Positions 12,464 to 59,538 of a stretch of DNA of 64,000 nt are shown in pieces; the stretch's first letter is position 1, and each line of letters starts with the position of its first letter. The stretch lies in IMG/VR virus record IMGVR_UViG_3300031998_000056, positions 9,919-73,918 of that record. One strand, written 5' to 3'. The translations under genes and the position numbers were made by a program. This stretch comes from a virus. Lineage: Duplodnaviria; Caudoviricetes. The notes beneath the pieces are model-generated. The model saw only the letters and a program-made list of their open reading frames with translations, searched no databases and was not told the origin of the DNA.

Positions 12464-12464
12464 G

Positions 12465-14076: not shown

Positions 14077-14080
14077 CCAA

Positions 14081-17488: not shown

Positions 17489-17514
17489 ACTTTAACCTTT
17501 GAACTTTGAACTTT

Positions 17515-17715: not shown

Positions 17716-18157
17716 AGAGATATTTGAGCGGAGCTTCGACAGGCTTCTCTATGTAGGGATAGCGGTAGTTATCGGGATTGTCTTTTGTATCTTATTGAGT
17801 TCGTGTAAGACCCAATACGTACCCGTAGAGACGATTAAAACCGAGTATATCACTAATACCGTTCATGATTCAGTCTACTTTGAGACGATAAAGAACGATT
17901 CCATAGTCATTAGGGAAAAGGGAGATACCATCTTTGTAGATAGGTGGCACACTTTATATCAAGACCGATGGAGGGAGAGATTAGTGACCGATACTCTGAT
18001 TAAGGTAGATTCCATACAGGTTCCCTATCCTGTGGAGAAGAAATTATCCTTTTGGGAGAAAGCGAGATATACATCATTAGGGATGGTGTGTTCTGTGATT
18101 CTTTTAGGGATTGTAGGAATAGCTTTATGGATTAGACGAAGATATAAGAGACTATGA
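17699..18157 (+). CDS. spanin-like lipoprotein
   Basis: N-terminal hydrophobic segment ending LLSSC and a C-terminal TM; located in the lysis cassette. Confidence 0.6.
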   Translation: MEMENEEIFERSFDRLLYVGIAVVIGIVFCILLSSCKTQYVPVETIKTEYITNTVHDSVYFETIKNDSIVIREKGDTIFVDRWHTLYQDRWRERLVTDTLIKVDSIQVPYPVEKKLSFWEKARYTSLGMVCSVILLGIVGIALWIRRRYKRL

Positions 18158-21846: not shown

Positions 21847-22054
21847 TGCCTTTGAACTTTGAACTTTGAACATTGAACTTTAGGTGTTGCAAATATAAAT
21901 CATTTCCTTGTTCTGTGCAACGTTTTTGTTGCGCGTAGCAAATGATAACAAATGTTTGGTGGGTGTGTTAAGAAATTATAACATTTATAACTCAAAACAA
22001 GGAAAGACGAATGTCTTTATCTCCTATTTTTGTGCGCAGAAATATTGTAAACTT

Positions 22055-38200: not shown

Positions 38201-41200
38201 ATCAGTATCTTATCACGAAGAGTGGTCTTGAGAGAAACAGGGAGCTGTTTGTGAGGGATTGGCTGGAGAAGGAGCGCAAGCGTAGAGTAACTAAAGAAGA
38301 AAACCTCAATGACGCAGAGCATGCAATCTACGAGCGTATCGTACGGGCTATCGAAGACGACTTTGAGGATGGAAATATCACAGAAGAGCAGAAGAACGCC
38401 AGACTTGCATCAGCCGTCAACGATGCACACCTTGAACACATAGAAAATGTGGAGATTGGCTGGCAAGCGATGAAGAGCAGATGGAACAATCCTAATTACA
38501 CCTTCGCCGAGTACATGAATGACCTCACTCAGTATATCCAAGGCACTATTGACGAGGATTACGACCCATCGAAGAATGACTATTCTGGCTTGACGGAGAT
38601 TTATGGCGGTCAGTTTGATGACGTAGAGGCCACCAACGATGTGATGAACGATGAGACCGCTATGGAGGCGGACGCAGAAATGCTCTGGCGTCAGATTAAC
38701 GAAGCTAACAAGTACGGCTTGGAGCGCTACAGGGAGGCTGGCATGAGAAGCGATGAGGAGATAGACAGGATAGAACGCATGTTCCATTGGTACGTTCCAT
38801 TGAGAGGATTCGACAAGGAAACCGCCGAGGACGTGTATCAGTATTTCACCTCCAAACAAAAGGCCAATAGTTACGTAGGCGGTCTGATTAAACGTGCAAA
38901 GGGTCGTAAGAGCCAAGCCAAGTCGCCCATGGCCACGATGTTCGCTATGGCTTACAAGGCTATCGGAGACTGCAATCAGAACCTTGTGAACCAGCATCTC
39001 TACAGATTGTGCCAGGCACACCCGAATGACTTGGTAATTATCAGCGATGCTTGGGCAAGACTGAACCAGACCACAGGCATGTGGGAAGAATCTTATCCGA
39101 CCATTCCCGATAACGCCACCGATGAAGAGATTCGCCAGATCACCCTCGCATGGGAGCAAGAGAACAAGCGTCTTGAACTCCAAGGTGAGGCAAGGAGGAT
39201 TAACGGCAAGGGTAAGTTCGACTATAAGTTTGCTGACAAGAAGAGCCGTGACGAGCATATCGTGGAGGTGATGATAAACGGCAAGAAGAAGCTGATGACC
39301 GTAGTTGGTAATCCTCGCATGGCACAGGCTTTGAACGGACAGACACGATTCTCCAATGCAAAGAACTTCTTGAGTAGTTGGAACAGCAGAATCAAGCACA
39401 TGATGTCGAGCGCATACACCTCATATAACCCGACCTTCGCTATGAGAAACCTCATGCGCGACTGGACGCACTTCAGAATGATGCTTGGTGTGAGAGAAGG
39501 ACAGGGATATGCCCGTGCCGCGAATAAGTATTACAGAGAGACCTTCCCACGTCCTATCCACACAAGAGGCAAGGAAGGAATGAAAACCCTGTTCAAAAAA
39601 TATCGCGATGGAACGTTGGATATGAACAAGGAGGTCGAGAAGGACTTCAAGGACTTCATGGATAACGGAGGTATCACAGGTTTCGTTCAGATGCAGAAGC
39701 TTGAGGACATCGAGAAGCACATGAACAATCTGAACAAGCAGTTGAAGGCTGGCAAGACCATCAAGCTCAACAACAAGATTTGGGATATGACGCTTGGTGT
39801 GGTAGAGGCATACAACGAGGCTATTGAGAACAACGCCCGTTTTGCCACGTACAGAGCCTCAAGACACTATGCTGGCAGGACGAAAGCCCGTAGTGCTTAC
39901 GATGCCAAAGAGGTTACCGTGAACTTCAACAGAAAGGGAGCGGGCGCAAAGACGGCTGGATTCAAGAGCAAGCGCGACAGGGTGACACATGCCGCACAGG
40001 TGGCAGGTGTGACAAGTCAGGTGCTTGGCGAAGGAAGAATCTTCAACAACGCCACCATACAGGCTATTGCCACCACGTTCAAGAACTTCCAGAACCCCGA
40101 TGGTAGCATCAACAAGGGTTATGTAGCAAGATGGGCAAAGGGCTATGCCATTCCTCCATTCGTTTTGGGCTTTGTGATGCCTTATATAAATGGAGCATTG
40201 TTTGCGATGCTCGGAGGTAGTGGCGATGACGACCCGTATGCAAACCTTCCCGATTGGGTGAGAAGAAAGAATCTATGTTTCTATCTCGGTTTCGACAGCT
40301 TCCTCACAACGCCTGTGGCACAGGAGCTTGCGGCATTCCTTACTTTGGGAGACATCGCAGCAGGCGTAACCTACGCTCCAGAGCTGAAGCCTATCGACAG
40401 AGGATGGGAAGAGGAGCTGGCCGATGTGCTGAATACCTTCTCTCCTGTGGATATTGACAAGAAGATAACCAATGGCGGTCTGTTCTCAAAGGATTGGATG
40501 CTTGAAATCATGGGCAAGACCTTCTCCGTACTGACACCAGCTATCTCCGTAGCAGAGAACAGGAGTTGGACGGGAAGGCCAATATTCCGCGAGGACAGAT
40601 ATGAAAATGACATCTATACGCCAGAGTATCAGATGGTGTACAGAGATACGAACCCCATCTTGGTTGAGGCTTCAAAGTGGCTGAATGATATTTCGGGAGG
40701 AGACGAGGATAAACGTGGATGGATACAGGTAAACCCGGCTATTGTTCAGTATCTATTTGAGCAGTTCACGGGCGGCCCGGGTAAGACACTCTCTAATTTC
40801 ATCTCTATTGGACGAGACATCAAAGACCTCCTCAAGGAGGGCAGTGCAGGTGACTTCAATGCGAGAAAGGTGGAAGGACTGAAAGCATTCGTTCAACAGG
40901 GAGACGACAGAACTCAATACTACAGGACTTTGGCAAAGTATCGCAAGTATGGCGAGGATGCGAAGGAACTGAAGGACGAGGTGTCGCGTAAGATGAAACG
41001 TGCAGAGGATGGTGACGTGGATGCCCTGCTGAAACTGCAAGAGATTGACAAGTCTGTGGAGGCTGAGCGGATGCGGATATACTACGACTACGAAAAGGAT
41101 TTGAGGAAGCTTTATAGCATGATGCTCTCCACCGAGGACAAGGCTTTGAAGAAGGAGCTTCAAAAGGATTACAACGAAGCCGTGAAGGAAGTAGTAGACC

Positions 41201-41229
41201 TGCTGGACGATGTGAAAGCAATGGAATAA
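23224..41229 (+). CDS. 6001-aa polyvalent ejection protein (DarB-like N6-MTase + SF2 helicase, nuclease-like, ART-like, zincin, LPD38-like)
   Basis: LEPSAGNG and NPPF MTase motifs; GDQTGIGKG and MDESH helicase motifs; VVYHGS...FFTD...VFLNIRNP ART-like; HETVAHHG zincin; LPD38-like C-terminus. Confidence 0.9.
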   Translation: MIFMKNESREWLYKTLSGNGYNVGKDYAQFDSLMTNNADSRKWVYETMRSNGYNVGKDYNEFEGLVNPVQATEQPTGVVNRFKDKVSAIKDKAEQVANQPTVHVGGDGMTFTESQLDSIDNGAKPVYVGNQPVQQPKQAVQQTEPRRTLRTPQELKEELRQINPDVADKAEALERTERETRAFAPTHLVEDYNRTAEETNKELTEAFKRGAFRRPTLDDELEAAYRDKARLEEEISANAGPGGASKGWATKMSQASNGSPIDVNTADEDRRAALRQVENRIQTLEDEKNNAGFWRGLSGDLFKPQNWSFGIVDLADATRLRNAVGAGDKVTDTQKELLRNTLLANDAESRYGRNRNAWYRAGKMGALSIQMMPDFMLGMGGMKSAARTGINLATKAGVKALGEKAMQKGLIKYTTKALGLAGGSLAGGARMVNTIQLPRLGAEAMKNYNGNLVQDENGKYKFEDGEENFLDAVLKAEQTLIPEAASEVGGEFTPGVGRILGGLGMKKIAKGLSAVQGTKLYKNVSKALAKTGFNGAPSEAFEEYANDVYSMMLGDKSGIFGENGQGGWGEGQKHLDIWLGTGTLGALLHAPTIAGTGFGAAQYYRYKHKTNTADKNAKELLGAMTWDNIKKSIDNSTNDNISDVVTAIFKAGGLDREGKKAVIDYAGNLQKQRGFSLGLTAAKNEEGRGKEGATADVLDNSYGAGYEAEGREQKEGIKATFDAATQNLDAMGEDIASMVKDEENPPMAVLSYMMGHRDSYSDEQISAAADYYQAKMQLQGMEQAEADNAEIEGEQTPKPLYTTVEQSDGKFNVSSFDKNGNLLGQQSFDTEDEANAYRGEVKMQKEHQDLQDYIGRMGAQGANTIAQFEQENGWEPGTIQKLTEADPMQMSDEELQMADQARAFLQEQAYPPTEVHIGHSEEQGAEAADDADIDTDTPNAEVVASVVVPYVESRDKLSDLFKRNEELAEEVQLYEQMGKSEQEIVSMLDTFKPEDVQTVIDYYNAQARLDGFMNRSKEKIEERVRLERGRRTFKGVINGQPDVRDLVEITDGENTYTLVNGNIRTNEQGQVTGSDGVIIALDQNGNFVSLGGNSTLSVLPSETTLDNWEEAYRNQVQENATASIDPNGVLQETTDNGQPTTEEPIENGEQAGGEAGQTTTGANEPSAPPAPQENQPITIESVTGEDGVKRYEQGVDVDTAIKDMEADGLDVNEWSDLAINEAQEELNKMKAPKTRAEYVKNAQRKNELQATIDYYNNVKNRYTELHPVYADAAPFVERLNKATSKKNADDILNEALQAGVNPSEIQAAHTQKVSDIITKEEEARQRAEEITDTDKKNIAQYGGTPEGRASLLDKKRGSAEKRRKLAKEIYGEYFDDDFEAIRDLRELISSWLGKGRALDPDTFGQELGWDMGVGKDAAKVSTMFTKRRENGGDGMTFNDFVHMVWEASGGRFDTDEIRNELLDMFQGAQDKTDLTEYQLQSRIAEAEMRMQGELERAEQAAQEGETEQAPIGDGMLPFAPMEGEEAPVAPSEQLKPTDLRDNVKPESAKIGESKKELQEKIKGWLTDENVEWAEGKDLNEVIERFGNEPEPIAVMPEIVRKNIPSLDTDYLYCGKAYFIDHHANHHPELDIDEYDNIQEILDSYDDIKDLSDGGNLRIAFVKKLDKGYAVVAELSKENDKIVLHKTFFYRDAAGKRIPYKNKPSILEKWSVDGSTTISPVESQQPADTENISALDQSSEGKDTNESEEKQEKVEKSSSKQDYLTSHPLTEEQIMADAESTEDEKLAAVDYLKGEDDSAISQFYYDEIYRRATQTEEQKDKEVEDKSERTGKTFNLDDVEALKSAPSGVRGAIKDYAVSAYNSAYLKVPSFQFGIPEEQQENMTYEKFLDEFKEQAGVLARGCEKYLPAVYEYIESKLDKRGLNHQKYAQPIETENPTEAIEQAAKSFRQQQKAQDRADIDAALKEFNDFLDGAKGNTLLGKLMYKGLEGNDKAKLDLTVLNAAQRAFMKDLLRLASKVGYAYIKSGVHNVQAWSKQMSESIGKKLKEVLGWDEATIDDFIGEVWEQKYTVDGERMKLREHAEKLNKNKEADQTVNVNKQKNNGTENVVSLQQEAEAEPQPAEKGLQVDFDEIESLKKAPFSVRETIKDNAIWAYQDAVISNLGSIFGFTHEEREEKKYNSFVENFNRRAGDLLSKGCEPYLRDVYDYISKKIGEQLERRKAEKEAEVATESQQTGKLEGDSAEFAKEQKKKSELGVAIFSALRAAVFDGDVQLKTMQNVKALAKEYGLENLSSTDLQEMVEAEVVQLARRIAEHKKWTPEQKYENIVRLYQTQPSLNARDNDRINLQQYSTPAPMAYLMGRFVDPNDEAQSGLEPSAGNGMLTIGLPKDIMHVNDIDEMRLSNLAKQGFKEVTSQDGTLPFGDKKYDVIVTNPPFGSTEPKVYDLYSISGLEHQMAINALDAMKDDGRAAIIIGGNTEYTNTGVIKGKDRSFLNYLYSHYNVVDVINMDGKSLYSRQGTGFPVRMILINGRKEFEPNTFAPVQSKARAEQIKTYDELYKRVNDDILSDNNKPAGVHDTESGEGGRVDDTRHAGASAQTGVRNVRTEGGEGQPSVRAELRPSVQGGDNATERTDAAEQQEVDRGLPDVGGRSGANEPSGSAPAPANGEGGNVSERGNDTERPAAESGEPSGGGRSPRVDDTHRVLGAEKVPYRPQSNNPYSLQSQMPAEQADVVKKALEDLGDVDEFLVRELGYSSVEDLYHGSQSPEKHGGLAAEQIDSVAMAIHQMNQGNAFIIGDQTGIGKGRQAAALIRYGVKKGGFPVFITVKKALFSDMYRDLCDIGSPKLKPFIWSADDSEHSGNVTDKDGKVIYEMPSKSEQKRVVDYINKYGKLPKEYDYVLTTYDAFKSGTMDYENGQKKARKFAKGKTAGPVHINGQAKRDALERLAENSYVIMDESHNAGGEGSNISNYLQYITTRAKGITFLSATFAKRPGNMPIYSLKTAIAKAGVEVADLIDAVKRGGATFQEIMSKALTEAGQMIRRERDMTGVTIDWRGIEDEQVIEKQRQQYDEIIGLFNDIIDFQRTYVDPIIDKLNDDAADAQGAVDHTPGTRDMGINNTPFASRTYNMVQQVLLSLKAEEAAKRAIEHLKEERKAVITVANTNEGAADEVSAANGESMEMPDLSVNLKKGLRGTLRITRKDGYGDSKNSEIPFGSLSPEGQARYQEIMDAIDNASTGLSLSPIDVIKNELKKAGYKVGELTGRKAEFVYNEDGSVKRVNRKDTDKKKVAADFNNGKLDALILNKSAGTGISLHASTTFKDQHQRIMIVAQAQGDVNDEVQIRGRIDRTGQVQRGAYEYVVSQIPSEQRLLMMLKAKLRSLDANTTSSQKSKFNEMQVQDIINKYGDQIVIQYLAEHVDLAEKMQNPLKWDGDWQTNTPEQLVNTASKADTDGGTASKVLGRMALLKVKEQEQMLDDISSLYQAEIDRLNDMGENDLEITEMPLKAKTLSKQVWEQGIEPGGKNPFADNSYVEKVNMDVLRKPMKGSEVKAAQERLLGGKTWDEYKQSVLDKLDKWAEDKKSDTTETITARAEKKAEAEKEKYIKGAKKAQEKNGMTDAEIEKNGQLQYDTFYKQEMEKLNNALAAIEKQKDVFVDALETFTTDGVYALPSNIYDLGRMTFEPGFGKLIDMKIADNFSTSASTISFATLDGRRKITIPISGMVKQQNNEKRGIFPIINTLTAQTRHGMFGQNMSNTLKVLGQNLDNWDKLTSTAARKDGYIITGNLLKALVSTREQHVGGKLISYTADTGEVRQGILMPDNFEPAGLTSKTPISAKKDELRYSRDKVESADGDVSIRVTNDYDWREHAYNTLELTVPKSVKKGAKYFNDQTLLDLMQGQFEGSSRMKAEFKRENLDAVMKRLDELGVTVQEQNNNDTDRRFDEDIEDAYTAEEQSIIDEAKKNGTYMKAPNGKKSNLTPKQWVRVRTKAFKDWFGDWLKGAQAVTVVNTSLEHGFKNFADARQWAKKNIARVYTNEETGGKGEIRISGNAIEKFTSEDAVKKSDNKDVHMAVLKVLPSVIKEGVDADTHPDYIKIDGVRKPENGVNPGVTIHRVYGGVEIDGKIYRVKVTLKEDRTQEIKKRAYSYEATKIELMDGQSATPVGVPRNSNNSILLANLLKNIDKSYTNGEKIIDSSQIIDENGEPKVVYHGSRSNNISVFDNSKAEARHSGSTLSKHSDRTHFFTDSEDAADASYAKGITGTVYPVFLNIRNPKVVDNKGARWDGTGYVLQKKSRITNGWRRVYPKNGNLDYFTNGDHINKDGHTNYRDDSEYKYELVNVTEPTDVIVEKAILDEQQYDGVIIKNVVDASSNYDEPVIADDFVTFVSPNQIKSATENNGDYSNENPGIRFDQGVAEARQQSDSKQRIAQHIDSLVKKLGTKAKTTVYHSLSELPADARRHVEDAHKRGRKVRGWYENGRVYLFLPDIDSTYQAEKTIWHETVAHHGLRELIGAKNYNELLKRLWLEHKDGDMGEWVTKRMEQNGWSLAEAIDEYLAREAEKEPFKEPSLWKRLQWMLTEILHKMGFTSDPTITDIQYLFWVSQNQIRENDPMTKMKQAAFLFRLEREVPDTPYVNMMARKVEDIYNPEALDAYDDGRRHSEETDEEVIERLEKEPKVKAYRAMQLIDGKLYPPMAAKQGGKLVAPIELGKWERADEHPEMADENGKFKLDKGNGKTLKAAYNPYIHTSTTMLNDQFSEAQSRPNLVVVEVEVPESELTSGYKAEKAKDSVGKVDWKAGVIQGQLSGTREVILSRWDKPVRIVPVEEVAKHIADMVKDRVEVMPTNVVTPQQREEMEKLGVKFVETDNRGMLVDGENKGKSYSSVYGKKAERRYDEDIDDPMEESVKDMYNERTDTAQFVMTEAYQDSMLALKTAQNAIVKDGDIPDSQNAYQAENLMHGKSKNEQDLFNVNFRDPLVKTTNKILNKMGWTMRRMNQYLITKSGLERNRELFVRDWLEKERKRRVTKEENLNDAEHAIYERIVRAIEDDFEDGNITEEQKNARLASAVNDAHLEHIENVEIGWQAMKSRWNNPNYTFAEYMNDLTQYIQGTIDEDYDPSKNDYSGLTEIYGGQFDDVEATNDVMNDETAMEADAEMLWRQINEANKYGLERYREAGMRSDEEIDRIERMFHWYVPLRGFDKETAEDVYQYFTSKQKANSYVGGLIKRAKGRKSQAKSPMATMFAMAYKAIGDCNQNLVNQHLYRLCQAHPNDLVIISDAWARLNQTTGMWEESYPTIPDNATDEEIRQITLAWEQENKRLELQGEARRINGKGKFDYKFADKKSRDEHIVEVMINGKKKLMTVVGNPRMAQALNGQTRFSNAKNFLSSWNSRIKHMMSSAYTSYNPTFAMRNLMRDWTHFRMMLGVREGQGYARAANKYYRETFPRPIHTRGKEGMKTLFKKYRDGTLDMNKEVEKDFKDFMDNGGITGFVQMQKLEDIEKHMNNLNKQLKAGKTIKLNNKIWDMTLGVVEAYNEAIENNARFATYRASRHYAGRTKARSAYDAKEVTVNFNRKGAGAKTAGFKSKRDRVTHAAQVAGVTSQVLGEGRIFNNATIQAIATTFKNFQNPDGSINKGYVARWAKGYAIPPFVLGFVMPYINGALFAMLGGSGDDDPYANLPDWVRRKNLCFYLGFDSFLTTPVAQELAAFLTLGDIAAGVTYAPELKPIDRGWEEELADVLNTFSPVDIDKKITNGGLFSKDWMLEIMGKTFSVLTPAISVAENRSWTGRPIFREDRYENDIYTPEYQMVYRDTNPILVEASKWLNDISGGDEDKRGWIQVNPAIVQYLFEQFTGGPGKTLSNFISIGRDIKDLLKEGSAGDFNARKVEGLKAFVQQGDDRTQYYRTLAKYRKYGEDAKELKDEVSRKMKRAEDGDVDALLKLQEIDKSVEAERMRIYYDYEKDLRKLYSMMLSTEDKALKKELQKDYNEAVKEVVDLLDDVKAME

Positions 41230-48013: not shown

Positions 48014-49687
48014 TTAGCCTGCGATGTCAGTACCAGTGTACTCTTCCCAAGAATCGCCGTCCCAAATGTAGACCTTGCCCTTTTCGAAGGTCTCATCGGG
48101 TGTCGGGGCTTCATGCTCAATCACGAAGTCGCTGGTCAAAGCAATCTTCATGTTGGTGGAAGGATTGGAAGGAAGCACGTTAGAGCTGACGATGTAGTTA
48201 ATCACGCCCTGATCCATGAGGTTGAAGATACCGCCCTCGGGGCCTACCATGATGGAGTTGTAACCCTTCAATGCCACAGCATCGGTGTCGTACTCCCAAT
48301 GTGTCTTGGCCAGACGGATATCGCCAGCGCCCTTCGACATGTCGTTGGTGCGGCTGCGGCCCTTCTCCTTGATGTAGTGAACGGCGTTATCCATGTCGAG
48401 GATGAACATGTAGTCGGCCATGCCCATGAAGTCGAGGGTCTGATCCCAGATGAAGTTGATTTCACCGAAGGTGTCCTTGAACTTCTTGAAGGTGAGGTCG
48501 TACTCGCTCTCAACGGTCATGTGAATCTGACGATTCGTGCCGGGGTTGATGTTCTCCAAGCGCTCGATAGCGTTCTTACCGCAGAATGCGAATGCGCGGT
48601 TAGAGGTAGCGAAGTCAGTGAACTGAAGCTTCGACAGGGCGATAAGGTCGGACAGGGTGTACTCGTTGCCGATAGCATAGTGGTTGGGAATCTGTGTCAT
48701 GATACCCTCTGAGTAGAACACATCCTCCACAGAGCCGTCATCGTTCATACGCTTACGCTTTGCCTTGACACCAAACCAATAGCCACGCTCAACACGCATG
48801 TCGTCCTTGATGGAAGCATCCTCCAAGAGGTTAGCCACCTTGACGGGGTACTTCTTCTTAGCCACCTCAAACTCCTCGGTGAAGGTAACGTTCCAGCCGT
48901 GCTTCTGGAGGTAGACCTCGCGCTCACGGGGCTGGAAGTTATCGGGAGTAACGAGAAGCTGCGATTCGCTCATGGCGTTCCACATACCAACGAGGTACGT
49001 ACCTACAGCAAGCTGAGGAACGGTCTGATAGTCGTATTCATCGCCCACCTGTGTAGAAACAGCAGCAGGGCCGTTGATGGCTACCAAGGTTGCACCAGTC
49101 TTGTCGCGCTCAATCACCTCAAGAACGAGGAAGTTACCATCGTGTTCGCTCTGGCTGCCGGGCTTGTAGCCACCCATCGAGGGAACAGCGAGGAGGTCGT
49201 ACTTGCGGAAAGCGAGGAGGTTGCCAGAGAAGTTGTCCTTCGTGAGCTTCACCTGTGCGCCAGCGCTGACCTGTGTAGTGATAGTTCCATCAAGAGTCTC
49301 ACCACCTACGCGAGCGTGCATGATAGAATAATTGGTAACACTCTGTGTCTTTGCCACACGGCTCAGAATGCGGAGGAACGGAACCTTGTAAGGACGAATC
49401 TGTGTGATTTTATCCTCACGCTCTTGGTCTTCCAAACCACCCTCACGAATCTGAGTGGCGCTGGCCTGTGTACCTGTTAGCACCTGACCTGCGTTGTCGC
49501 CACCAGGCATTACGCGGTCGTTAACGGTCGGGTCGACAGGCTCATGGTCGGCAGCAGGGTCGGCCTTCAACATGTCGTCCGTTCCGGGATTCTCAATAGT
49601 GCCGGGAGCCATGCAGCCACCGCCACTTACAACTGCGACAGCGGTGAGCATATAGCTCAGCAATCGCCAAAAGTTGACTTTTTTCAT
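48014..49687 (-). CDS. major capsid protein (probable)
   Basis: 557 aa, strongly biased C-ending codons suggesting high expression; follows a scaffold-like gene, divergent from portal. Confidence 0.7.
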   Translation of the reverse strand: MKKVNFWRLLSYMLTAVAVVSGGGCMAPGTIENPGTDDMLKADPAADHEPVDPTVNDRVMPGGDNAGQVLTGTQASATQIREGGLEDQEREDKITQIRPYKVPFLRILSRVAKTQSVTNYSIMHARVGGETLDGTITTQVSAGAQVKLTKDNFSGNLLAFRKYDLLAVPSMGGYKPGSQSEHDGNFLVLEVIERDKTGATLVAINGPAAVSTQVGDEYDYQTVPQLAVGTYLVGMWNAMSESQLLVTPDNFQPREREVYLQKHGWNVTFTEEFEVAKKKYPVKVANLLEDASIKDDMRVERGYWFGVKAKRKRMNDDGSVEDVFYSEGIMTQIPNHYAIGNEYTLSDLIALSKLQFTDFATSNRAFAFCGKNAIERLENINPGTNRQIHMTVESEYDLTFKKFKDTFGEINFIWDQTLDFMGMADYMFILDMDNAVHYIKEKGRSRTNDMSKGAGDIRLAKTHWEYDTDAVALKGYNSIMVGPEGGIFNLMDQGVINYIVSSNVLPSNPSTNMKIALTSDFVIEHEAPTPDETFEKGKVYIWDGDSWEEYTGTDIAG

Positions 49688-49720: not shown

Positions 49721-50488
49721 TTATTGAGTATACTTCCTTACGAAGTCCATCATAGATTCCTTCTTCTCGGCCTTGGGAAGGGCACGGCCACCACCTTGAC
49801 TGAACGAGGGAGGTACGCGACCTTCGTCAAAAGTCTTTACCTTGTTGGTGTGCTTTTCGTTTCGGGCTTGGATAGCAGCCTCTTCACGGGCGTTCTTGAT
49901 GTCGTTGTCGTAGTTCATCGCGTGTAATAGCGCAATCCACGTATCCTTTGCCACCTCACCTCGGAATGCAGGTGCGTAGACCTTATCCCAGAAATGCTCC
50001 CAAAGGCGGTCGAGCTGTTCGTCAGAAAGGCCGAACTCCTTCTGTACTCCGACCAATTCCTGTAGGCTCTTTTCAATGGCCTCGTCCTGTGCTTTCTGTG
50101 CGGCCTCACCTTCGGCTTGCTTCTGCTGCCACGAATTGAACGCATCTGTGACGCGGTTCATTACTTCGGGGTCGTCAAGTGCGGCCTTGATGTCGATTCC
50201 GTTCTTGCTCATCCAGACTAAAGGATTCTCTTCCTCGTCCATGAGCATTGCGCCAATCCAGCGGTGCTTGTCGAGAATACCAGAGAGCTTGCGTCCAGAG
50301 CTACGGAGGTTGCGATAGTTCTCGCGCTCCTCGGCCATACGCCCGTAACGTGCTTCCTTGTCCTCAAAGTCCACATCGGGATTGTCCTCTCCGAACATGG
50401 CGGCATACTTGTCTCTGTTCGGACGTGCAGGCATCTCGGCTGGCTGCTCTAATGCCTGTTCCTGTAGTAACTTTTCGTCTTTTGCCAT
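49721..50488 (-). CDS. capsid scaffolding protein (probable)
   Basis: Acidic, helical, 255 aa, directly upstream of the MCP. Confidence 0.6.
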   Translation of the reverse strand: MAKDEKLLQEQALEQPAEMPARPNRDKYAAMFGEDNPDVDFEDKEARYGRMAEERENYRNLRSSGRKLSGILDKHRWIGAMLMDEEENPLVWMSKNGIDIKAALDDPEVMNRVTDAFNSWQQKQAEGEAAQKAQDEAIEKSLQELVGVQKEFGLSDEQLDRLWEHFWDKVYAPAFRGEVAKDTWIALLHAMNYDNDIKNAREEAAIQARNEKHTNKVKTFDEGRVPPSFSQGGGRALPKAEKKESMMDFVRKYTQ

Positions 50489-50671: not shown

Positions 50672-52630
50672 ATGGCAAAGATACGTACACGCTCACAGGT
50701 CGGCCTTCACGATTCGGTAAAGGCCCGAAAACGGAGCAGCGCATTGCCTATTCGCCGCAGCAGAAGGGAGGATAATGACCTAAAGATAAGGTGCGAACAG
50801 GCTTGGAACAACCTTGACGATGTACGACAGACCCGTGAGAGGGTGATGGAATACGTCTACGGAGACCAATGGGGCGACATCATCCGCTATAAGAACGGGT
50901 TCGTCACAGAGCGCGAATACATCCAGAGGAAGGGCAATGTTCCTTTGCAGAACAACATCATGATAAGCATTCTCCAATCTATCGTTGGTTTGTATGCCAA
51001 GCAGAGGGGAGAGCCTAATTGTTTTGCCGTAAGGAAAGACGGACAATGGCTGTCGGACATGATGAGCGCTACCATCCAATCGTGTTGGACTAAAACAAAG
51101 ATGCCTGATGTGTTGAAGGTGGCGTTTGAGGATTTCGCCCTTGGCGGTGTGGCCGTATCGAGGGAAACCTACGAAGAAAGAGACGGATGGAAGGACGCTT
51201 GGACTGACTTTATCAATCCAAATTATGTGTTCTGGGAGGCTGGCAACGATTCGCGCATGACCGACTTGAGAATGATTGGCGTGTTGCATGATGTTGCGCC
51301 CGGAGACCTTTACAATCGTTTCTGTACGAAAGAGTACGGATGGTCGGTGGAAGAACTTAATGAAGTGTTCCATATCGAGAACGATGAGACCTTGCGTGGC
51401 TATCGCAAAGAATCTGGCTTACAGCAGAACGAGAAGGACAGCCTCAGTTCCGTCAGCTTCGACAAGCCCTCGGACGAATCCCTTTGCAGACTGATAGAGG
51501 TTTGGACGAAGGAGACCAAGCCGAGATACCAATGTTACGACCCATTGGCACAGAGTGCCGATGAGGTGGAGTACAGGGTGGAGATAAACGACCTTTGGCA
51601 CGTTCAGCAAGAGAACGAGCTGAGGGTGAGACAATACCAAGAGGTGGGCGTTCCCGAAGAAGAGTGGGCGTTGATAGAGTACGAACTTGTGGAGGACAGG
51701 TATTGGTATTATACCTTCATGGCTCCCGATGGTACAGTCATCGCAGAAGGGGAGACGCCCTATGAATCGCATTCGCACCCGTTCACGATTAAGCTTTATC
51801 CTTACGTGAACAGCGAGATACATCCTTTTATGGGGAATATTATCGACCAGCAGAGGTATATCAACCGCTTGATTATCATGCACGATATGGCGGCACGTTC
51901 TGCGGCAAAGGGATTGACCATTTTCCCGATAGAGAATATTCCCGATGGAATGTCAAAGGCAGACGTGGCCGATGAGTTGACGGAGTATGACGGCCTGTTG
52001 TTCATTCAGACGAACAGGCTTAACCCGAACCTGCGGCCAGAGATTATCACTTCGAATGCCGTTCAGATCGGCACACAGGAGTTGTTGCAGATGGAGTTGA
52101 ACCTTGCGCGAGACATTACGAATGTGTCGGGCGCATTACAGGGCAAGACACCTTCGGCTGGCACATCGGCAGCGAGATACAACCAAGAGACGGAGAACGC
52201 CACGACCTCTCTGATGTCGATATTGCAAGACTTCACTTCGTTCATGGAGGATATTGCCACGAAGAAGTGCATGATGATTAAGCAATACTACAGGAAGGGC
52301 AGGTTGGTTACGAACAAGGACAAGACCTCGCTGATTGAGTATGATAACTTATCAGCAAGGGATGTATACTTTGAGACGACCATCAAGGAGAGTGCCAAGA
52401 CCGCCGCATTCCAGACGTATCTCAACGATACCGCACTACAACTTTTGCAGATGAACGCCATCAGCGTGAAGCAGTATCTTGAGGTTGTGAACCTTCCCTA
52501 TGCTGACGAGTTGTTGCAGATTATCCAGCGTGACGAGGCACAACAGCTTGCCATGCAGCAGCAGCTTGCACAGGAGGGTGTGAACCAAGAGCAAGTACAG
52601 AACGCACAGAAAATGTTACAAGCAGCATAA
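50672..52630 (+). CDS. portal protein (P22-like)
   Basis: 652 aa; YVYGDQW, IIDQQRYINRL, ELARDITNVSGALQG pattern of P22-type portals. Confidence 0.85.
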   Translation: MAKIRTRSQVGLHDSVKARKRSSALPIRRSRREDNDLKIRCEQAWNNLDDVRQTRERVMEYVYGDQWGDIIRYKNGFVTEREYIQRKGNVPLQNNIMISILQSIVGLYAKQRGEPNCFAVRKDGQWLSDMMSATIQSCWTKTKMPDVLKVAFEDFALGGVAVSRETYEERDGWKDAWTDFINPNYVFWEAGNDSRMTDLRMIGVLHDVAPGDLYNRFCTKEYGWSVEELNEVFHIENDETLRGYRKESGLQQNEKDSLSSVSFDKPSDESLCRLIEVWTKETKPRYQCYDPLAQSADEVEYRVEINDLWHVQQENELRVRQYQEVGVPEEEWALIEYELVEDRYWYYTFMAPDGTVIAEGETPYESHSHPFTIKLYPYVNSEIHPFMGNIIDQQRYINRLIIMHDMAARSAAKGLTIFPIENIPDGMSKADVADELTEYDGLLFIQTNRLNPNLRPEIITSNAVQIGTQELLQMELNLARDITNVSGALQGKTPSAGTSAARYNQETENATTSLMSILQDFTSFMEDIATKKCMMIKQYYRKGRLVTNKDKTSLIEYDNLSARDVYFETTIKESAKTAAFQTYLNDTALQLLQMNAISVKQYLEVVNLPYADELLQIIQRDEAQQLAMQQQLAQEGVNQEQVQNAQKMLQAA

Positions 52631-52632: not shown

Positions 52633-53502
52633 ATGGAAACGATAATATCGACAGCATACGTTCCAACGGCAGAAGAGGCAGACCCTACGGTTGTACTCAT
52701 AGGGTTTACCATCTCTTCTCTTTATCCAGACATCAAGAGACACCTGTCTGTCATCGGGAAGCGGACTGCCAACAAGAACGGGGAGAATGTGTTCTCCCAG
52801 ATAACCATTTCTTCTGCCGAAGAACCCATCTTCCTCCAATACATCCAACAGGCTTCACAGAATGTCGTTGCGGCCATCAATCAGTTCGTATCGAACTATG
52901 TTGATAATGGCTCGTTTATCTCGTTCAAGGTTACGAACACACGATGGAACGACCCGACAACTCCGAACTTCGTGGAAGCTTTCAGACCTGCGTTGAAGAA
53001 GTATCTTGTGATGTACACCGTAGCAGAATATCTCTCCATGAACTTCCCAGAACTTGCAAAGAAATACTTTGATGCAGTCCTTCAAGCCATGCAAGCCATC
53101 ATACAGCTTGTATTCTTCAAGGCTCCGCCTCCATCACAAGAGGTTGTCGTTTACCCGACTTACTCGCCTGTTCCGCTTGGAACGTCAAGCTATGAGTTCT
53201 ATGTTCCCACAAGGACTATCATCAATCTCGCAAATAAACTGCAAAGCATAGACATTACATTGACGCGAGGCGGTTCGGAGGCTTCGACATCTTCGATTGT
53301 CCTTAGACGAAGTGATGGAACGACAGGGTTGTTCACGAACTCAAGTTACAATTCCTTCACAGGCGACACAACAATCACCGCATACCAAGCGCGTGACCTG
53401 TCTACCAATCTGGCTGATATTGGAGAGTTTTCAAGATTCATGCCGGGCGCAGTTGATTCTATACATGATGGAGATATACTGACCATCACTCCAACTCCCT
53501 AA
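52633..53502 (+). CDS. ring/adaptor protein 1
   Basis: Downstream of portal; distant similarity to the following three genes. Confidence 0.5.
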   Translation: METIISTAYVPTAEEADPTVVLIGFTISSLYPDIKRHLSVIGKRTANKNGENVFSQITISSAEEPIFLQYIQQASQNVVAAINQFVSNYVDNGSFISFKVTNTRWNDPTTPNFVEAFRPALKKYLVMYTVAEYLSMNFPELAKKYFDAVLQAMQAIIQLVFFKAPPPSQEVVVYPTYSPVPLGTSSYEFYVPTRTIINLANKLQSIDITLTRGGSEASTSSIVLRRSDGTTGLFTNSSYNSFTGDTTITAYQARDLSTNLADIGEFSRFMPGAVDSIHDGDILTITPTP

Positions 53503-53532
53503 GTAAAATCATAAACGTAAAATAGTAAGATT

Positions 53533-54381
53533 ATGTCAAAGACACTAACCCTGAGCTTGAATAAGAAGCTCATTATTGAGGCCGTAAAAGCCGACACCTA
53601 CATCACCGGAGCTATTGACAAGAGCGCCGATGCAGTGAAAAACTCAGCCCTTGCTTATAACGAGCAGGCTGGTGATGATACCTACCATGAGCGAAAGCTT
53701 ACCCGTACACTTGCTGGCGCAGTAGGTTCTCTTGAGGCAAACTTCGCAGAGTTTATTGACACAAGCGTACTGAATGCTATTTCGGACACGCTGGCCGCTG
53801 CCGATTCAGACGGCAACTTCACGATTACGATTATCGTCAGCGACCGCTACAACAATGGTTTGGCTTATCCTATCGCCCAGCTCTCACAGGAGTACATCGT
53901 GAACAAGATGCTGTACTATTGGTGGCAGAGCATCCGTCCTACACTTGCCAAGGACTACCTTGCTTTCTCTGCTGAATCGCTGACAAACATCCGCCTGTGC
54001 TTGGCCAAGACAGCCCCTCTCGCCAACAGCGCATCGTATGAGGACGTTTCGGGTGATGTAAATGGTTCTTCTTCTGAGACCATCGTTGTCAAGACCACGA
54101 TTTCACAGGCCAACGACAAGTACACCATCGCACGCGCTACCTTCCTTGGTTACTACGATTCGTCAAGTAAGCTCATCGTTGAATGTAGCGACCCGACAGC
54201 AGGGTTCACGTTGAAGGCTGGAACGGCAGTCATCTGCAATATCGGTTCTACTCCGTATACCATTACCGCCAAGAACTTCGCAGACCTTTCAAGCTCAGAC
54301 GCAACCAACATCGAGTTTATTCCTACAGGCACTCTTGGCAGCTCCAACGTACTCATTGTCAAGACCGCTACGGCATCCTAA
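53533..54381 (+). CDS. ring/adaptor protein 2
   Basis: Clear paralog of 54394..55158 (LNKxLIIEAVK, AYxEQAGxD). Confidence 0.6.
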   Translation: MSKTLTLSLNKKLIIEAVKADTYITGAIDKSADAVKNSALAYNEQAGDDTYHERKLTRTLAGAVGSLEANFAEFIDTSVLNAISDTLAAADSDGNFTITIIVSDRYNNGLAYPIAQLSQEYIVNKMLYYWWQSIRPTLAKDYLAFSAESLTNIRLCLAKTAPLANSASYEDVSGDVNGSSSETIVVKTTISQANDKYTIARATFLGYYDSSSKLIVECSDPTAGFTLKAGTAVICNIGSTPYTITAKNFADLSSSDATNIEFIPTGTLGSSNVLIVKTATAS

Positions 54382-54393
54382 AGTGTTTCTATT

Positions 54394-55158
54394 ATGAACT
54401 TGACCATCACCCTTACTCTTAACAAGCCGCTGATTATTGAGGCGGTGAAGAACGAGACCTTCCTCACAGGACAGGTACAGAAGGGCGCGGACAAGAACCT
54501 TATCGTTGCTGCCTACCACGAACAGGCTGGCAATGATGTTTATCAGGAGCGACTATTGGAACGAGGGTTGTATGTTGCGTTGGAGGAGTTAAAGACCTAT
54601 TTCTCTGACTATCTCTCAACGACAGGCTTCACTACCGCAGACAACTCCGTAGATTCCTCTATGGATGGGGATAATATCCTCATCCAACTTGTCGTTTCGA
54701 ACAGGTTCAACAAAGGTTACACGCAGTCGCTTGCCCGTCTGTCCTCAAAGTACATTGAGGAGTCGATGCTGATTGATTGGTGGAAGCCCGTGAACGAGAA
54801 GCAGAGCTTGTTATATGCTCAGTTCTTGGAGCGCGACCTTGCCGCCATCAGACGTTGTTTCAACAAGACAGCCCCCGAAGTTCCTACCGTTCCTTATCCC
54901 ACTACGTTAAGTGTCACAGGCTCTGCTATAGACATCGGAGTAGACGAGGAATACACTATTACCTATACGCTCAACGATTGGGCGATAGATGATATTGAGA
55001 TACGGATAGCAGACCCTGTTATCTGTGCTGCTGGAAGAACGGAGGAAGGTTTTACGGTTATTGGAAAGCAACTTGGCCACACATACGCACAGCTCTATTC
55101 CCGTCACAATGAAGATTTGACGAGGACGATACACGTTTATGTGACAGACCAGACTTAG
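54394..55158 (+). CDS. ring/adaptor protein 3 with C-terminal Ig-like extension
   Basis: Paralog of 53533..54381. Confidence 0.6.
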   Translation: MNLTITLTLNKPLIIEAVKNETFLTGQVQKGADKNLIVAAYHEQAGNDVYQERLLERGLYVALEELKTYFSDYLSTTGFTTADNSVDSSMDGDNILIQLVVSNRFNKGYTQSLARLSSKYIEESMLIDWWKPVNEKQSLLYAQFLERDLAAIRRCFNKTAPEVPTVPYPTTLSVTGSAIDIGVDEEYTITYTLNDWAIDDIEIRIADPVICAAGRTEEGFTVIGKQLGHTYAQLYSRHNEDLTRTIHVYVTDQT

Positions 55159-55191
55159 TGCAGAGTTCATAGTGCAGAGTTCATAGTTTGT

Positions 55192-55821
55192 ATGACTGAA
55201 AGAGAATATCTACAAGGTTACAGGACGATGGGGTTGCCAAGACCTCAGCCAGACGACAATTGGCCGTACCACGACCATCCGAACAACGGGAACGACCCTC
55301 AGTATGGAGTGAAGAACCCGAAGTTCGAAAGGCATATCTTTATCCGTAGAGACCAAGTGTTCTACGATATAGATGCGCAGTTAGGGATGATTTCGGAAGG
55401 AAGGAAGAACCCAGACGGCACGGAGGACGAGACGATGACCAACGCCACGACCAAGTACCAGCAGTTGTTCTACCGATGGATTGATTCCCACATAGGCGAG
55501 GCCAAGACCACGATGTCGGCATTCGTGTTGGAGAAGTTCAAGACGAGTGCGATGAACTCCATCAAGGACAAGGACGAGGTGGATATCACCTTGTTAGTTC
55601 CCGAGTGGTATGACGACACTACCTTCCCACAGCTCACGGATGCCGTCCACAATTATGTGGTGAGCGCCACACTATATGATTACTTGCAGATGCGCCTCAC
55701 ATCGAAAGACCCGATAACGATAGACAAGCGCGACCAAAAGACCTTGGCTCTTGAGGAGGTGAGGAAACTTGTGAACGCTGCGAAGCCGGGGCGCATCAAA
55801 AAGATTCTGAAACCGTTTTGA
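55192..55821 (+). CDS. ring/adaptor protein 4
   Basis: QLTDAVHNYVVSATLYDYL motif shared with the other ring proteins. Confidence 0.5.
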   Translation: MTEREYLQGYRTMGLPRPQPDDNWPYHDHPNNGNDPQYGVKNPKFERHIFIRRDQVFYDIDAQLGMISEGRKNPDGTEDETMTNATTKYQQLFYRWIDSHIGEAKTTMSAFVLEKFKTSAMNSIKDKDEVDITLLVPEWYDDTTFPQLTDAVHNYVVSATLYDYLQMRLTSKDPITIDKRDQKTLALEEVRKLVNAAKPGRIKKILKPF

Positions 55822-56300
55822 TTGTAAGGTTAGTTGTAAGTGTTCTGTTGGTGGGGTCGTACTTTTTTCTACCGAAGTACGGCTTCACCTCTTTTAACTC
55901 TCCACTAACAGACCACCTTCTTTATTCTATTTCACATGCGAACATCTTCCACTTGGCAGCTAACGTACTTTGTTTGTGGTTGCTCAAGTGCCCTACATAT
56001 TTATATATAACGTATCCGATAGCCGTTCTTGCATCGTTTCTCCCTTCATTTACCATCTATACCTTATTAGGTTATGAAGCATCGGGCATGACGATGGGCT
56101 TTTCGGGTGTACTCTTTGCCATCGCAGCTATGGCTTGGGGAAGGATACACAGGTTCAAGAGGATGTTCACAAAGAACATTTGGTTTATCGTTATCCCCTT
56201 CTTCGTTCCGAACATCAATGCCATTCTTCATGTGTACTGCATGTTGATGGGATATTATTGCGGACAACTGACAACTGACTACAAACTACGGACGGCATGA
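55818..56300 (+). CDS. rhomboid-family intramembrane serine protease
   Basis: HANIFHLAAN (HxxxxHxxxN), GFSG (GxSG) and TM His in ILHVYC; very hydrophobic. Confidence 0.85.
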   Translation: MIVRLVVSVLLVGSYFFLPKYGFTSFNSPLTDHLLYSISHANIFHLAANVLCLWLLKCPTYLYITYPIAVLASFLPSFTIYTLLGYEASGMTMGFSGVLFAIAAMAWGRIHRFKRMFTKNIWFIVIPFFVPNINAILHVYCMLMGYYCGQLTTDYKLRTA

Positions 56301-58444
56301 TTCCAGAGGTAAAGGACTTAATTGCGGAGAACCACCTGCGCAGGCAGGAGATATATGGGCCTTACGACCCCCTAACAGGTGTGGGGTGCTACGGGTTTGT
56401 CAAAGGAATGAGAAAGCATATTACCATTCCCGATTGCATCATTCCCGAGATGTTCGTACCGAAGGAGACTTTAACTACTGCGATATTCCATGAGGTTTTA
56501 AGGTTCGGCTCTATCAAGGCGTATATAGAGAAGGGGATGAATCGTGACTACGATGCGGACTACCATCAGGACGTGGAGGAAGCTTTGTTCCAAGCGAGAT
56601 TCATTGACGACCCAGAGTTCGCGTTCTACATGACCGATAAGATTGTTGACAAGACAACGGGTAACCTTATTCCTTTTAGGTTGAGATACGCCCAAAGAAA
56701 GCTCCTTAATCTGATGGAGGACAGCCGCAGGGCAGGGAAGCCGATACTTATTGCTCTATTGAAAGCCCGTCAGTGGGGAGGCTCAACATTAACCCAGATG
56801 TACATGAAGTGGATGCAAGACTACCGTCATCCGAATGGATGGAACATGGCTATACTTGCACAGGTAGGCTCTACATCAAAGAAGATTAAGGCCATGTACA
56901 GAAAGGCTATCGAGAGCCAGCCCGGATGGACGTTGGGAATGCCTGGCACTAAGTTCAAGATGTCGCCTTATGAGCAGAGCGATTCAGACTTTATCATCAC
57001 AGACGGACGATTCGCGTTAAGACCTTCCACTTTAAGTGTGGCCTCGTTTGAGAACTTTGAGAAGCTTCGTGGTGATAACTTCAAGATGGTACACTACTCC
57101 GAGGTTGCTTTGTGGAAAAAGACACCCGAGCATGATCCAGAGGAAGTGATTTCTGCCGCAGAGGGAGGACTTATCGGACTACCCGATGAATTAGCCGTAT
57201 TTGAAAGTACGGGTATGGGTAATTCGGGCTTCTTCTACGACCTGTGTCAAGATGCCATGAAGGAAGATACCACATCTGCTTATAAGTTCCTGTTTATCCC
57301 GTTCTATATGATTGAGCATGACATGGAGCCGAAAGGGGAGAACGGGTTTACCCCCGAACAGGAGGAGGCGTTTGCAGAGTGGCTGTGGAACAACAGGAAC
57401 TACGACAAGTGCCCTGCTGGGTACAGAGAGCCGGGCAAGTTCTTTTGGAAGATGTGGAAACTTGGGGCGTGTTTCGAAGCTATCAATTGGTACAGGATAA
57501 ACCGAAATAAGCACAAGAACCACGCTTATATGGCTTCCGAGGCTCCCATTGACCCGACAGAAGCTTTCCGTAATAGTGGCAATGCCGTCTTTAATCCTTA
57601 TTCTATAGATGAGTTAAAGGAGGAATGCAAAGCTCCGAAAGCACCGCTTTACTATGCAGATGTCATCCTTGCTCCGTTTGAGAGAAGGTCGAGGTCGGTA
57701 TTCTTAAACTCAGAAGTAAGGTTTAGAAACGACAACCAAGGCGAGATGAAGATATGGTCTACTCCTAATAATCATATCTTCCGCATCAAGAACAGATACT
57801 TTGTATCAGTCGATATAGGTGGTAACTCTGCCACAGCGGACTATACGGTGATGACTGTCATTGATAACATGGGTTTGTGTCCGGGCGTGAACGGAAAGCC
57901 AAGGGTAGTGGCACGATGGAGAGGGCACGTAAGACATGACATCCTTGCATGGAAAGCCGCAGCTTTAGCCCATTACTATGACGATGCTCTCTTAATCATA
58001 GAATCGAACACCGCTGACCGAGAAAGAGACAACAATACCGAGGGCGACCACTTCGGAACGATTATTGAGGAGATTTCGGGATACTATACCAATCTCTATC
58101 AGAGGACGAAAGAACCCGAGGCCACTACGGAGGGAATCAAACCTATCTATGGTTTCCAGACGAATAAACTAACAAAGGGTTGGCTGATAGATAACCTCAT
58201 AGCCTGTGTGGATGACAAGCTGTGGGATGAACCCGATGAAGAGATGTACAGAGAACTTGGTTGGTACGAAAGACGAGAGGACGGCTCGATGGGTAACAAG
58301 CTTGGTTCTGGCAAGCATGATGACGTGCTGATGTCTACAGCCATTGCTTTATGGGTTGCGTTCAACTCTCCTTATAAACCAAGCTGGCCAACAGACAGGG
58401 CAACAACCCGTGACAGGCTGCTGCCCACAGAAGCAAGCTTCTGA
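56297..58444 (+). CDS. terL: terminase large subunit
   Basis: LKARQWGGST Walker A, VHYSE Walker B, VSVDIGG and HDDVLM nuclease motifs. Confidence 0.95.
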   Translation: MIPEVKDLIAENHLRRQEIYGPYDPLTGVGCYGFVKGMRKHITIPDCIIPEMFVPKETLTTAIFHEVLRFGSIKAYIEKGMNRDYDADYHQDVEEALFQARFIDDPEFAFYMTDKIVDKTTGNLIPFRLRYAQRKLLNLMEDSRRAGKPILIALLKARQWGGSTLTQMYMKWMQDYRHPNGWNMAILAQVGSTSKKIKAMYRKAIESQPGWTLGMPGTKFKMSPYEQSDSDFIITDGRFALRPSTLSVASFENFEKLRGDNFKMVHYSEVALWKKTPEHDPEEVISAAEGGLIGLPDELAVFESTGMGNSGFFYDLCQDAMKEDTTSAYKFLFIPFYMIEHDMEPKGENGFTPEQEEAFAEWLWNNRNYDKCPAGYREPGKFFWKMWKLGACFEAINWYRINRNKHKNHAYMASEAPIDPTEAFRNSGNAVFNPYSIDELKEECKAPKAPLYYADVILAPFERRSRSVFLNSEVRFRNDNQGEMKIWSTPNNHIFRIKNRYFVSVDIGGNSATADYTVMTVIDNMGLCPGVNGKPRVVARWRGHVRHDILAWKAAALAHYYDDALLIIESNTADRERDNNTEGDHFGTIIEEISGYYTNLYQRTKEPEATTEGIKPIYGFQTNKLTKGWLIDNLIACVDDKLWDEPDEEMYRELGWYERREDGSMGNKLGSGKHDDVLMSTAIALWVAFNSPYKPSWPTDRATTRDRLLPTEASF

Positions 58445-58989: not shown

Positions 58990-59538
58990 ATGGAACTCAA
59001 AGATTTAGTGGAGATGAAAGCGCTGGAGAACAACGGCCTTTCCCCATTTGAGCAGTACAAGGTCGGGTACATGCAGCAAAAGAACCACACCAGCGGCATC
59101 GGTGTGACAGGTCTTGTGTTGGGTTGTGTTGGCACAGCCGCCGCCGTAGGTGCATGGATATTCGCTCCGTTGTATGGTAATGCCAAGGCCAGCCAAGCCA
59201 AGGAAGCCGCCTATGCAGCCAAGGAGATTGCATCCATCCAGAATGGTGCTACCCAGCGTCAGCTTGACCAGCTTACCAACCTTCTTGCCGCAGAGCGTAG
59301 TGAGCGTTTGCAGGGTGACATCACCTTGAACGCCACTATCAACGACACCGTTAGTGGTCAGCAAGCCGCCAGCCTTACCGCACAACAGGCCGCAGAGCTG
59401 TCGAGCGTGAACTCTGTGATGCAGCAGACCTATTCAGACTTCGTGACAGGCCGCGCCAGCTTGAATCCTACTCCCGTGAGCCTCTACAGCGCTCCCCAGC
59501 CCTGTAGCTGCCCCAACTCATGCGGATGTAACGGGTAA
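58990..59538 (+). CDS. membrane/coiled-coil protein with Cys-rich C-terminus
   Basis: Gly-rich TM GIGVTGLVLGCVGTAAAVGAWIF, coiled coil, ends PCSCPNSCGCNG. Confidence 0.85.
   Translation: MELKDLVEMKALENNGLSPFEQYKVGYMQQKNHTSGIGVTGLVLGCVGTAAAVGAWIFAPLYGNAKASQAKEAAYAAKEIASIQNGATQRQLDQLTNLLAAERSERLQGDITLNATINDTVSGQQAASLTAQQAAELSSVNSVMQQTYSDFVTGRASLNPTPVSLYSAPQPCSCPNSCGCNG

Follow-up and report, generated by a model that had tools for sequence, protein, structure and literature searches.

A mini-rhomboid gene in the head and packaging module

The window analysed here, 64,000 nucleotides in length, comprised bases 9919-73918 of the 73,918-bp virus record IMGVR_UViG_3300031998_000056 in IMG/VR, from a gut/rumen Bacteroidales phage, and contained a short gene for a rhomboid-family intramembrane protease within a plus-strand block of head and packaging genes (Table 1). 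The rhomboid gene overlapped both of its neighbours by 4 bp, as the first-pass annotation had noted: its TTG start shared TTGA with the stop of the upstream open reading frame (ORF; 55192..55821), and its TGA stop shared ATGA with the ATG of the 715-aa ORF downstream. The first helix of the protein, conserved among homologues in two alignments, was encoded only if this TTG served as the start. The downstream gene was confirmed as that of the large terminase subunit (TerL), but the name 'ring protein' previously given to the upstream product could not be upheld, as it belonged to phrog_19255, a family of unknown function of which three tandem paralogues (53533-55821) lay between portal and rhomboid. 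SU10_adaptor was the nearest named Atlas cluster to the gene immediately preceding the rhomboid, at a score that provides a lead only. TerL matched annotated large terminases of Roseobacter phage CRP-7, Vibrio phages and an uncultured podovirus by tblastn, as well as a PHROG terminase family. It also matched proteins of three cultured Bacteroides phages whose records read 'tail spike' yet cite structural matches to terminases; GenBank PQ571269, PQ571263 and PQ571277 (our loci L001, L085 and L086) carry the large terminase under the label 'tail spike protein'.

Table 1. Coordinates of the rhomboid, the capsid protein and other features within the window
Feature	Position	Strand	Description
Mini-rhomboid gene	55818..56300	+	160 aa, six transmembrane (TM) helices; from ORF, Pfam, alignments and AF2 model
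Rhomboid H40-x4-H45-x3-N49	55935-55964	+	TM2 residues
Rhomboid G94-F-S96-G97	56097-56108	+	GxSG, start of TM4
Rhomboid Ser96	56103-56105	+	Catalytic; codon
Rhomboid His138	56229-56231	+	Catalytic, TM6; codon
Major capsid protein (MCP)	48014..49687	-	557 aa; SU10-type HK97 fold from ~residue 101; acidic and disordered over residues 22-100
MCP leader	49607..49687	-	Residues 1-27, proposed substrate segment: MKK, hydrophobic stretch, SGGGCMA
Scaffold-position gene	49721..50488	-	phrog_22323; conserved together with MCP
P22-type portal	50672..52630	+	First gene of the plus-strand block ending in rhomboid and TerL
Four genes from portal to rhomboid	52633..55821	+	52633..53502, then three phrog_19255 paralogues; function unknown
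TerL	56297..58444	+	715 aa
187-aa gene	21310..21873	-	phrog_27246
CI-like repressor	3496..4404
Integrase	5470..6618
Lysis cassette	16229..18157		Holin-like three-TM protein, endolysin (phrog_435), spanin-like protein

The product of ORF 55818..56300 matched the Pfam family Rhomboid (PF01694) with 25.1 bits (gathering score, 22.6; E = 2.3e-5), and the same domain was present in most of its homologues; there were zero matches to PHROG families, and zero in sequence searches of the PDB with either the rhomboid or TerL. The motifs on which the first reading had based its call of a compact rhomboid, HxxxxHxxxN, GxSG and a TM histidine, were all in place and strongly conserved. In an alignment of 65 homologues reaching down to 35% identity, H40, A41, H45, L46, N49, G94, S96 and P131 were invariant, and N42, H138 and G145 were at least 90% conserved, with H138 invariant in the other alignment. 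An AF2 model built on the 65-homologue alignment (pLDDT 92.6, pTM 0.87) gave strong Foldseek matches in the PDB that were all to GlpG (2nr9/2ic8; probability 1.00, TM-score ~0.6), with iRhoms next. By all features examined (sequence, motifs and fold) the protein belongs to the rhomboid family, and these comparisons directly establish its identity, fold, catalytic residues and orientation. It is predicted to be an active, catalytically intact minimal intramembrane serine protease. The closest viral proteins came from uncultured 'Podoviridae sp.' and were already labelled GlpG-like. Earlier annotations of phage rhomboids exist for Stenotrophomonas phages DLP3 and DLP5 and for three Bacteroides phages, with no function proposed; that of Bacteroides phage BKO1-TP3 is recorded as 'glycoside hydrolase', and the structure note of the same record says rhomboid.

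Like the GlpG/AarA-type rhomboids (PF01694, MEROPS S54), the phage enzyme possessed a six-helix core with the GxSG serine in TM4, the histidine in TM6 and H-x4-H-x3-N in TM2, and shared the GlpG fold and membrane orientation. It differed in being much smaller, in having no cytoplasmic domain, and in its short L1 loop (~20 residues), where the WR motif was not present in PKYGFTSFNSPLTDHLLYSIS, the L1 sequence of the window, and where the family consensus was LPKYGFT. The WR motif is typical of many rhomboids and is not required for membership of the family. Across the phage family, loops placed according to GlpG-like topology carried a mean of 8.1 Lys+Arg on the cytoplasmic side and 1.0 on the periplasmic side, so the Ser96-His138 dyad should open to the periplasmic leaflet, in the orientation of GlpG. 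A non-catalytic role, as an iRhom-like membrane anchor or chaperone for portal or terminase assembly, would suit the translational coupling to TerL found in most loci and the presence of iRhoms among the fold matches. We consider it highly improbable, as Ser96, His138, H45 and N49 showed little or no variation over hundreds of divergent clusters, which is the pattern of an active enzyme, and iRhoms have lost the catalytic serine.

The rhomboid is a core gene of the head module

A profile search of 1.8 billion representatives returned 928 clusters (at 50% identity) with E <0.001, 307 of them with E <1e-10, and nearly all were 145-185 aa long; Atlas clusters near the phage rhomboid were 67-100% viral. 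We compared 84 related loci, 70 of which were informative on the position of the rhomboid, and in all 70 it lay inside the head module. In 55 it immediately preceded TerL on the same strand, often sharing the ATGA overlap; in 13 it was convergent with TerL at a distance of 3 kb; and the remaining two had the order portal, TerL, two head genes, rhomboid, adaptor-like gene. Because the rhomboid stood away from TerL in 15 of the 70 loci, its link is to the head/packaging (morphogenesis) module and not to the terminase as such. The first-pass annotation's placing of it among the morphogenesis genes is supported, whereas its description of the gene as coupled to the terminase fits the adjoining arrangement of the majority but overstates the general case. 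In BKO1-type phages (BKO1-TP3 and G005) the rhomboid directly followed a small gene homologous to the 187-aa phrog_27246 gene of the window, which may be a small terminase subunit that has been relocated in this genome.

Matches to the strict Bacteroidetes promoter pattern (TTTG-N17-21-TAnnTTTG) numbered ten in the window against 1.2 expected; they spanned 3424-15773 plus 58596-58626, with nine of the ten in the early region, and there were none inside the block from portal to TerL, the late head block included. The rhomboid had neither promoter nor terminator of its own and was translationally coupled within the late head/packaging block. When four mutually divergent genomes (G000, G001, G005 and BKO1-TP3) were compared by BLASTP, 11 protein families were common to three or four of them and the rhomboid was among these. 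It has the behaviour of a morphogenesis core gene rather than of cargo, and the core status is taken directly from these comparisons. The lineage consists of temperate Prevotella/Bacteroides podophages; relatives have hosts in Prevotella, Bacteroidaceae, Cryptobacteroides and Alistipes, and the phage of the window is itself temperate, with an integrase and a CI-like repressor. Three relatives are in culture (BKO1-TP3, BF1-TP2 and BS-TP4, all isolated in 2025), and the paper describing them is silent on the rhomboid (PMC12694917).

Alternatively, the rhomboid might cut a host envelope protein, in takeover of the cell, superinfection exclusion or the timing of lysis, and its association with the capsid protein leader described below would then be due to shared ancestry only. 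A temperate lifestyle accords with such a role, as do the rhomboids of Stenotrophomonas phages DLP3 and DLP5, which lie outside the structural genes, and the known substrates of bacterial rhomboids, which are host membrane proteins such as TatA (PMC2941825). We nevertheless regard a host target as unlikely, given that the gene lacks its own promoter and terminator inside the late head/packaging block and has stayed in the head module through several rearrangements as a core gene, unlike accessory cargo. A part in lysis is improbable too: the holin-like, endolysin and spanin-like genes lay 38 kb from the rhomboid and were not syntenic with it.

The major capsid protein carries a signal-peptide-like leader

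The MCP matched SU10_MCP (PF17236) with 41.1 bits (cut-off, 24.1; E = 2e-10). Its structural model contained a helix at residues 4-22, regions of very low confidence at 22-73 and 87-100 and a folded domain from ~101, for which the best Foldseek match was VP1 (1.4e-22), followed by the capsids of crAss001, SU10 and HK97. The N-terminus read MKKVNFWRLLSYMLTAVAVVSGGGCMA and was followed by an acidic, Pro-/Gly-rich stretch. The leader was built from basic residues, ~15 hydrophobic residues and GGG-A-M-A, with an acidic disordered linker next. Among 176 unique MCP N-termini, the n-region carried a net charge of +3.1 on average, uncharged runs had a mean length of 20 residues, and a GG-like motif was found close to the end of the run in 151, the predominant c-region being GGG-[AV]-[ML]-A. 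The first residue after the run was D or E in 164 of the 176 and Gln in one, and the 40 residues downstream had a mean net charge of -6.3. Positions A18, G22 and A27 of the leader were at least 90% conserved and the linker after it was hypervariable. In its sequence features (a basic n-region, an h-region, a helix breaker and small residues at -3/-1) the leader fits the pattern of signal peptides cleaved by signal peptidase I. Leaderless relatives of the MCP begin just downstream of the point at which the leader ends in sister proteins. Use of the Met of A-M-A as an internal start for a leaderless MCP was rejected, as this codon was CTC, CTT, ATC, ATT or ATA in 15 of 56 distinct sequences; the codons upstream of it were GGN-rich.

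Rhomboid and leader occur together in phages

Co-occurrence with leader-bearing MCPs had been proposed in the first-pass annotation as a check on whether the rhomboid has a role in assembly, and the pairing was present in every phage examined with a visible MCP. The leader was found in all rhomboid-bearing phages of this kind, amounting to 176 unique N-termini and reaching down to 22-30% MCP identity, including rhomboid-bearing IMG/VR loci with MCP identity down to 28%. Ten IMG/VR virus records, nine being at least 90% complete, were searched in full and all ten had both leader and rhomboid, including some with the rhomboid >10 kb from the MCP. Both were likewise present in BKO1-TP3, BF1-TP2 and BS-TP4, and in divergent prophages of Cryptobacteroides, Alistipes, other Bacteroidales genera and two oddly binned metagenome-assembled genomes. 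Searching by capsid protein, we found the MCP family in three of 50,697 phage records, namely the same three cultured phages, and the rhomboid accompanied it in all three. When true phages with a related MCP and no rhomboid were sought, the top 80 IMG/VR MCP loci proved to be close relatives throughout; the rhomboid was present in five of five whole contigs sampled from these loci, and five fragmentary contigs were uninformative. MCP relatives occurred in 28 of 401 sampled Bacteroidales genomes, and five of the 28 carried prophage-like loci with leader plus rhomboid. This genome search missed one rhomboid that hmmsearch found, so absences drawn from it are soft. The joint presence of leader and rhomboid in phages is thus a direct observation.

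The MCP leader was one of three substrates put forward at the outset, along with the Gly-rich TM protein at 58990..59538 and ejection proteins, and comparative genomics favours it: apart from the co-occurrence, the rhomboid and the MCP were the sole shared families with a hydrophobic segment in the four divergent genomes. That another phage membrane protein is cut instead, whether the Gly-rich protein, a holin or spanin, or an ejection protein, we consider very unlikely. The protein at 58990..59538 does have a Gly-rich TM segment, and small membrane proteins evolve fast enough for BLASTP to miss homologues. Against this, 58990..59538 had no homologue in any of the 84 related loci, for which it was rejected as a substrate, nor had its neighbours, and no conserved TM-bearing ejection protein was found among the four divergent genomes.

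A candidate leader peptidase for the capsid protein

We propose that the rhomboid acts as the leader peptidase of the phage's own MCP, a reading of the sequence comparisons to which we give close to, but short of, an even chance. The fuller picture, of a tailed-phage lineage with a membrane-targeted MCP precursor and a rhomboid of its own as leader peptidase, in which intramembrane proteolysis gates the supply of subunits, is put forward tentatively and held below even chances. Synthesis of the rhomboid would coincide with that of the late head and packaging proteins in a temperate Bacteroidales podophage, and the MCP would be synthesised as a precursor in which the signal-peptide-like leader precedes an acidic, disordered spacer 60-75 residues long. 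The leader would bring this precursor to the inner membrane, where the rhomboid would cleave at or near GGG-AMA. The leaderless MCP, similar to the naturally leaderless relatives, would then be freed for assembly with scaffold and portal. We infer the leader as substrate, the position of the cut and a reason for tethering a capsid protein, which, if the proposal is true, could be control of timing, concentration of subunits or hiding of capsid monomers from host sensors.

Several observations weigh against this proposal, and the first concerns geometry. The strong charge dipole across the leader predicts an N-in/C-out orientation, and known bacterial rhomboid substrates are N-out (PMC2941825); the candidate substrate is thus an N-terminal N-in leader and not an N-out TM helix as for GlpG/AarA-type enzymes. 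If it spanned the membrane, an N-in leader would set GGG-A-M-A at the periplasmic leaflet, at the depth of the rhomboid active site, and, barring partial or re-entrant insertion, would carry the capsid domain to the wrong side. Two ways out can be envisaged. The flexible cleavage region might bend back to enter the active site, as has been proposed for the type II substrate Star (PMC2941825), or the short hydrophobic stretch might insert as a re-entrant hairpin tipped by GGG, which would keep the capsid domain in the cytoplasm throughout. Secondly, the P4/P1/P2' motif of rhomboid substrates was not clearly present in the leader. Thirdly, GGG at -6 to -4 and A-x-A at -3/-1 constitute a textbook signal peptidase I site, and because of this match host signal peptidase I could do the cutting.

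A further difficulty is posed by chromosomal islands. About 19 of the 401 Bacteroidales genomes encoded a leader-bearing MCP homologue with no mini-rhomboid found genome-wide, in islands of ~7.5 kb that adjoined the host fumarase gene (L227:8330-15887 and L228:8336-16266). These islands held a scaffold-like gene (phrog_22323), an SU10-type MCP-like gene, a gene for an unknown 544-aa protein and an endolysin-like gene; TerL, portal and rhomboid were all absent from them, and they could be domesticated capsid modules or satellites. Since such leader-bearing islands exist without a phage rhomboid, another enzyme can probably handle such leaders. In four genomes a leaderless MCP lay beside a truncated P22-type portal (~460 aa) between ordinary host genes; in L242:4530-7764 and L248:7527-10780 the flanks comprised host SusC/SusD, GH2, peptidase U32 and endonuclease I genes. 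A single probable prophage (L249) with a leaderless MCP was found, and it had no rhomboid. In a quick maximum-likelihood tree, the window-type clade consisted entirely of members with leader and rhomboid, and in the second clade phages with both traits branched first and the islands were nested, with 98% support. Among genuine phages, therefore, leader and rhomboid go together, and leaders without a phage rhomboid were met only outside phages, which is suggestive, not decisive. The co-occurrence in true phages could instead reflect common descent, as a pair of lineage-wide traits, and few independent events lie behind it.

Both the c-region and the islands are accommodated if the leader is either cut off by host signal peptidase I or retained, and the rhomboid has a secondary leader-related job, such as ridding the membrane of the very large load of leader peptide, as a signal-peptide peptidase would, or freeing precursors stuck at Sec/YidC. 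Besides the -3/-1 rule and the classical n/h/c build, free signal peptides are N-in, the same polarity as the MCP leader, and the co-occurrence of rhomboid and leader would be accounted for as well. However, export of the capsid domain would be futile, and no bacterial rhomboid is known to act as a signal-peptide peptidase. A glutamine start is common among Bacteroidetes substrates of signal peptidase I, and the acidic residue found after the uncharged run in most leaders, with Gln in only one, would fit poorly with this Q-rule (cited in PMC10367356) if it lay at +1. Overall we judge a division of labour with host signal peptidase I to be improbable, and prefer to retain leader cleavage by the rhomboid as a candidate step, resting on comparative genomics.

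Comparison with known maturation systems

Head maturation in tailed phages is thought to depend on soluble prohead proteases, or on none, a view that a step at the membrane would alter. The prohead proteases of HK97 and T4 remove N-terminal delta or scaffold domains from the capsid protein, and T4 proheads are released from the inner membrane on maturation cleavage. Leader cleavage by the rhomboid would similarly have a phage-encoded protease remove an N-terminal part of an HK97-fold capsid protein in maturation. Whereas the HK97 and T4 enzymes are soluble, packed within the prohead and active once the shell has formed, the rhomboid would need unassembled or membrane-tethered subunits. Signal peptides on the capsid proteins of Bacteroidota phages have been noted once in the literature, in Porphyromonas gingivalis phages whose capsid proteins were predicted to have Sec-type signal peptides, with cleavage by prohead proteases assumed and no rhomboid mentioned (PMC10367356). 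The phages studied here share such predicted signal peptides but differ in that no prohead protease was recognised in the head module by Pfam or PHROGs, and the rhomboid is conserved instead.

The closest functional analogy is the pairing of rhombosortase with GlyGly-CTERM, in which a dedicated rhomboid and a tag of Gly-rich motif, TM helix and basic residues were found through co-occurrence (PMC3237569, PMC6219818). Both systems have a tripartite tag (Gly-rich motif, hydrophobic helix, basic cluster) and a pairing recognised from genomes, and in both the Gly motif would sit at the periplasmic end of the helix with the basic residues in the cytoplasm. In contrast, the phage tag is an N-terminal mirror image (basic, helix, GGG), and the pairing is one-to-one, on a cytoplasmic capsid protein. 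The enzyme is also not a rhombosortase: its sole NCBIfam match was to TIGR03902 at 17.5 bits, far under the cut-off of 84, and membership was rejected on this score and on the N-terminal position and reversed order of the conserved tag, there being no C-terminal GlyGly-CTERM.

A literature search yielded no paper that connects phage assembly with a rhomboid, consistent with the assertion in the first-pass annotation that no such pathway had been described. If the proposal is true, tailed-phage morphogenesis would gain its first step carried out by an intramembrane protease, the rhombosortase/GlyGly-CTERM pairing would have a counterpart that is N-terminal and of reversed polarity, and some abundant gut and rumen phages would build their heads from membrane-tethered subunits. 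Natural substrates of bacterial rhomboids are, to our knowledge, known for few enzymes only, and the phage system would add a small enzyme of 160 aa that is genetically linked to an obvious and abundant candidate substrate, one whose polarity is unusual. As the cultured phages BKO1-TP3, BF1-TP2 and BS-TP4 carry the rhomboid-leader pair, the idea is directly testable, and we postulate a potentially new maturation pathway around a known kind of enzyme.

Other features of the genome

The spanin-like protein of the lysis cassette was 152 aa long, had a lipobox (LLSSC) at its N-terminus and a TM segment at its C-terminus, and looks like a unimolecular spanin. A single ORF at 23224..41229 encoded 6001 aa, and its counterparts in relatives measured 5400-5550 aa and contained ddrB-ParB, helicase and LPD38 domains. 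The counterpart in BKO1-TP3 is annotated as DarB-like, and the 6001-aa ORF has the appearance of a polyvalent protein.

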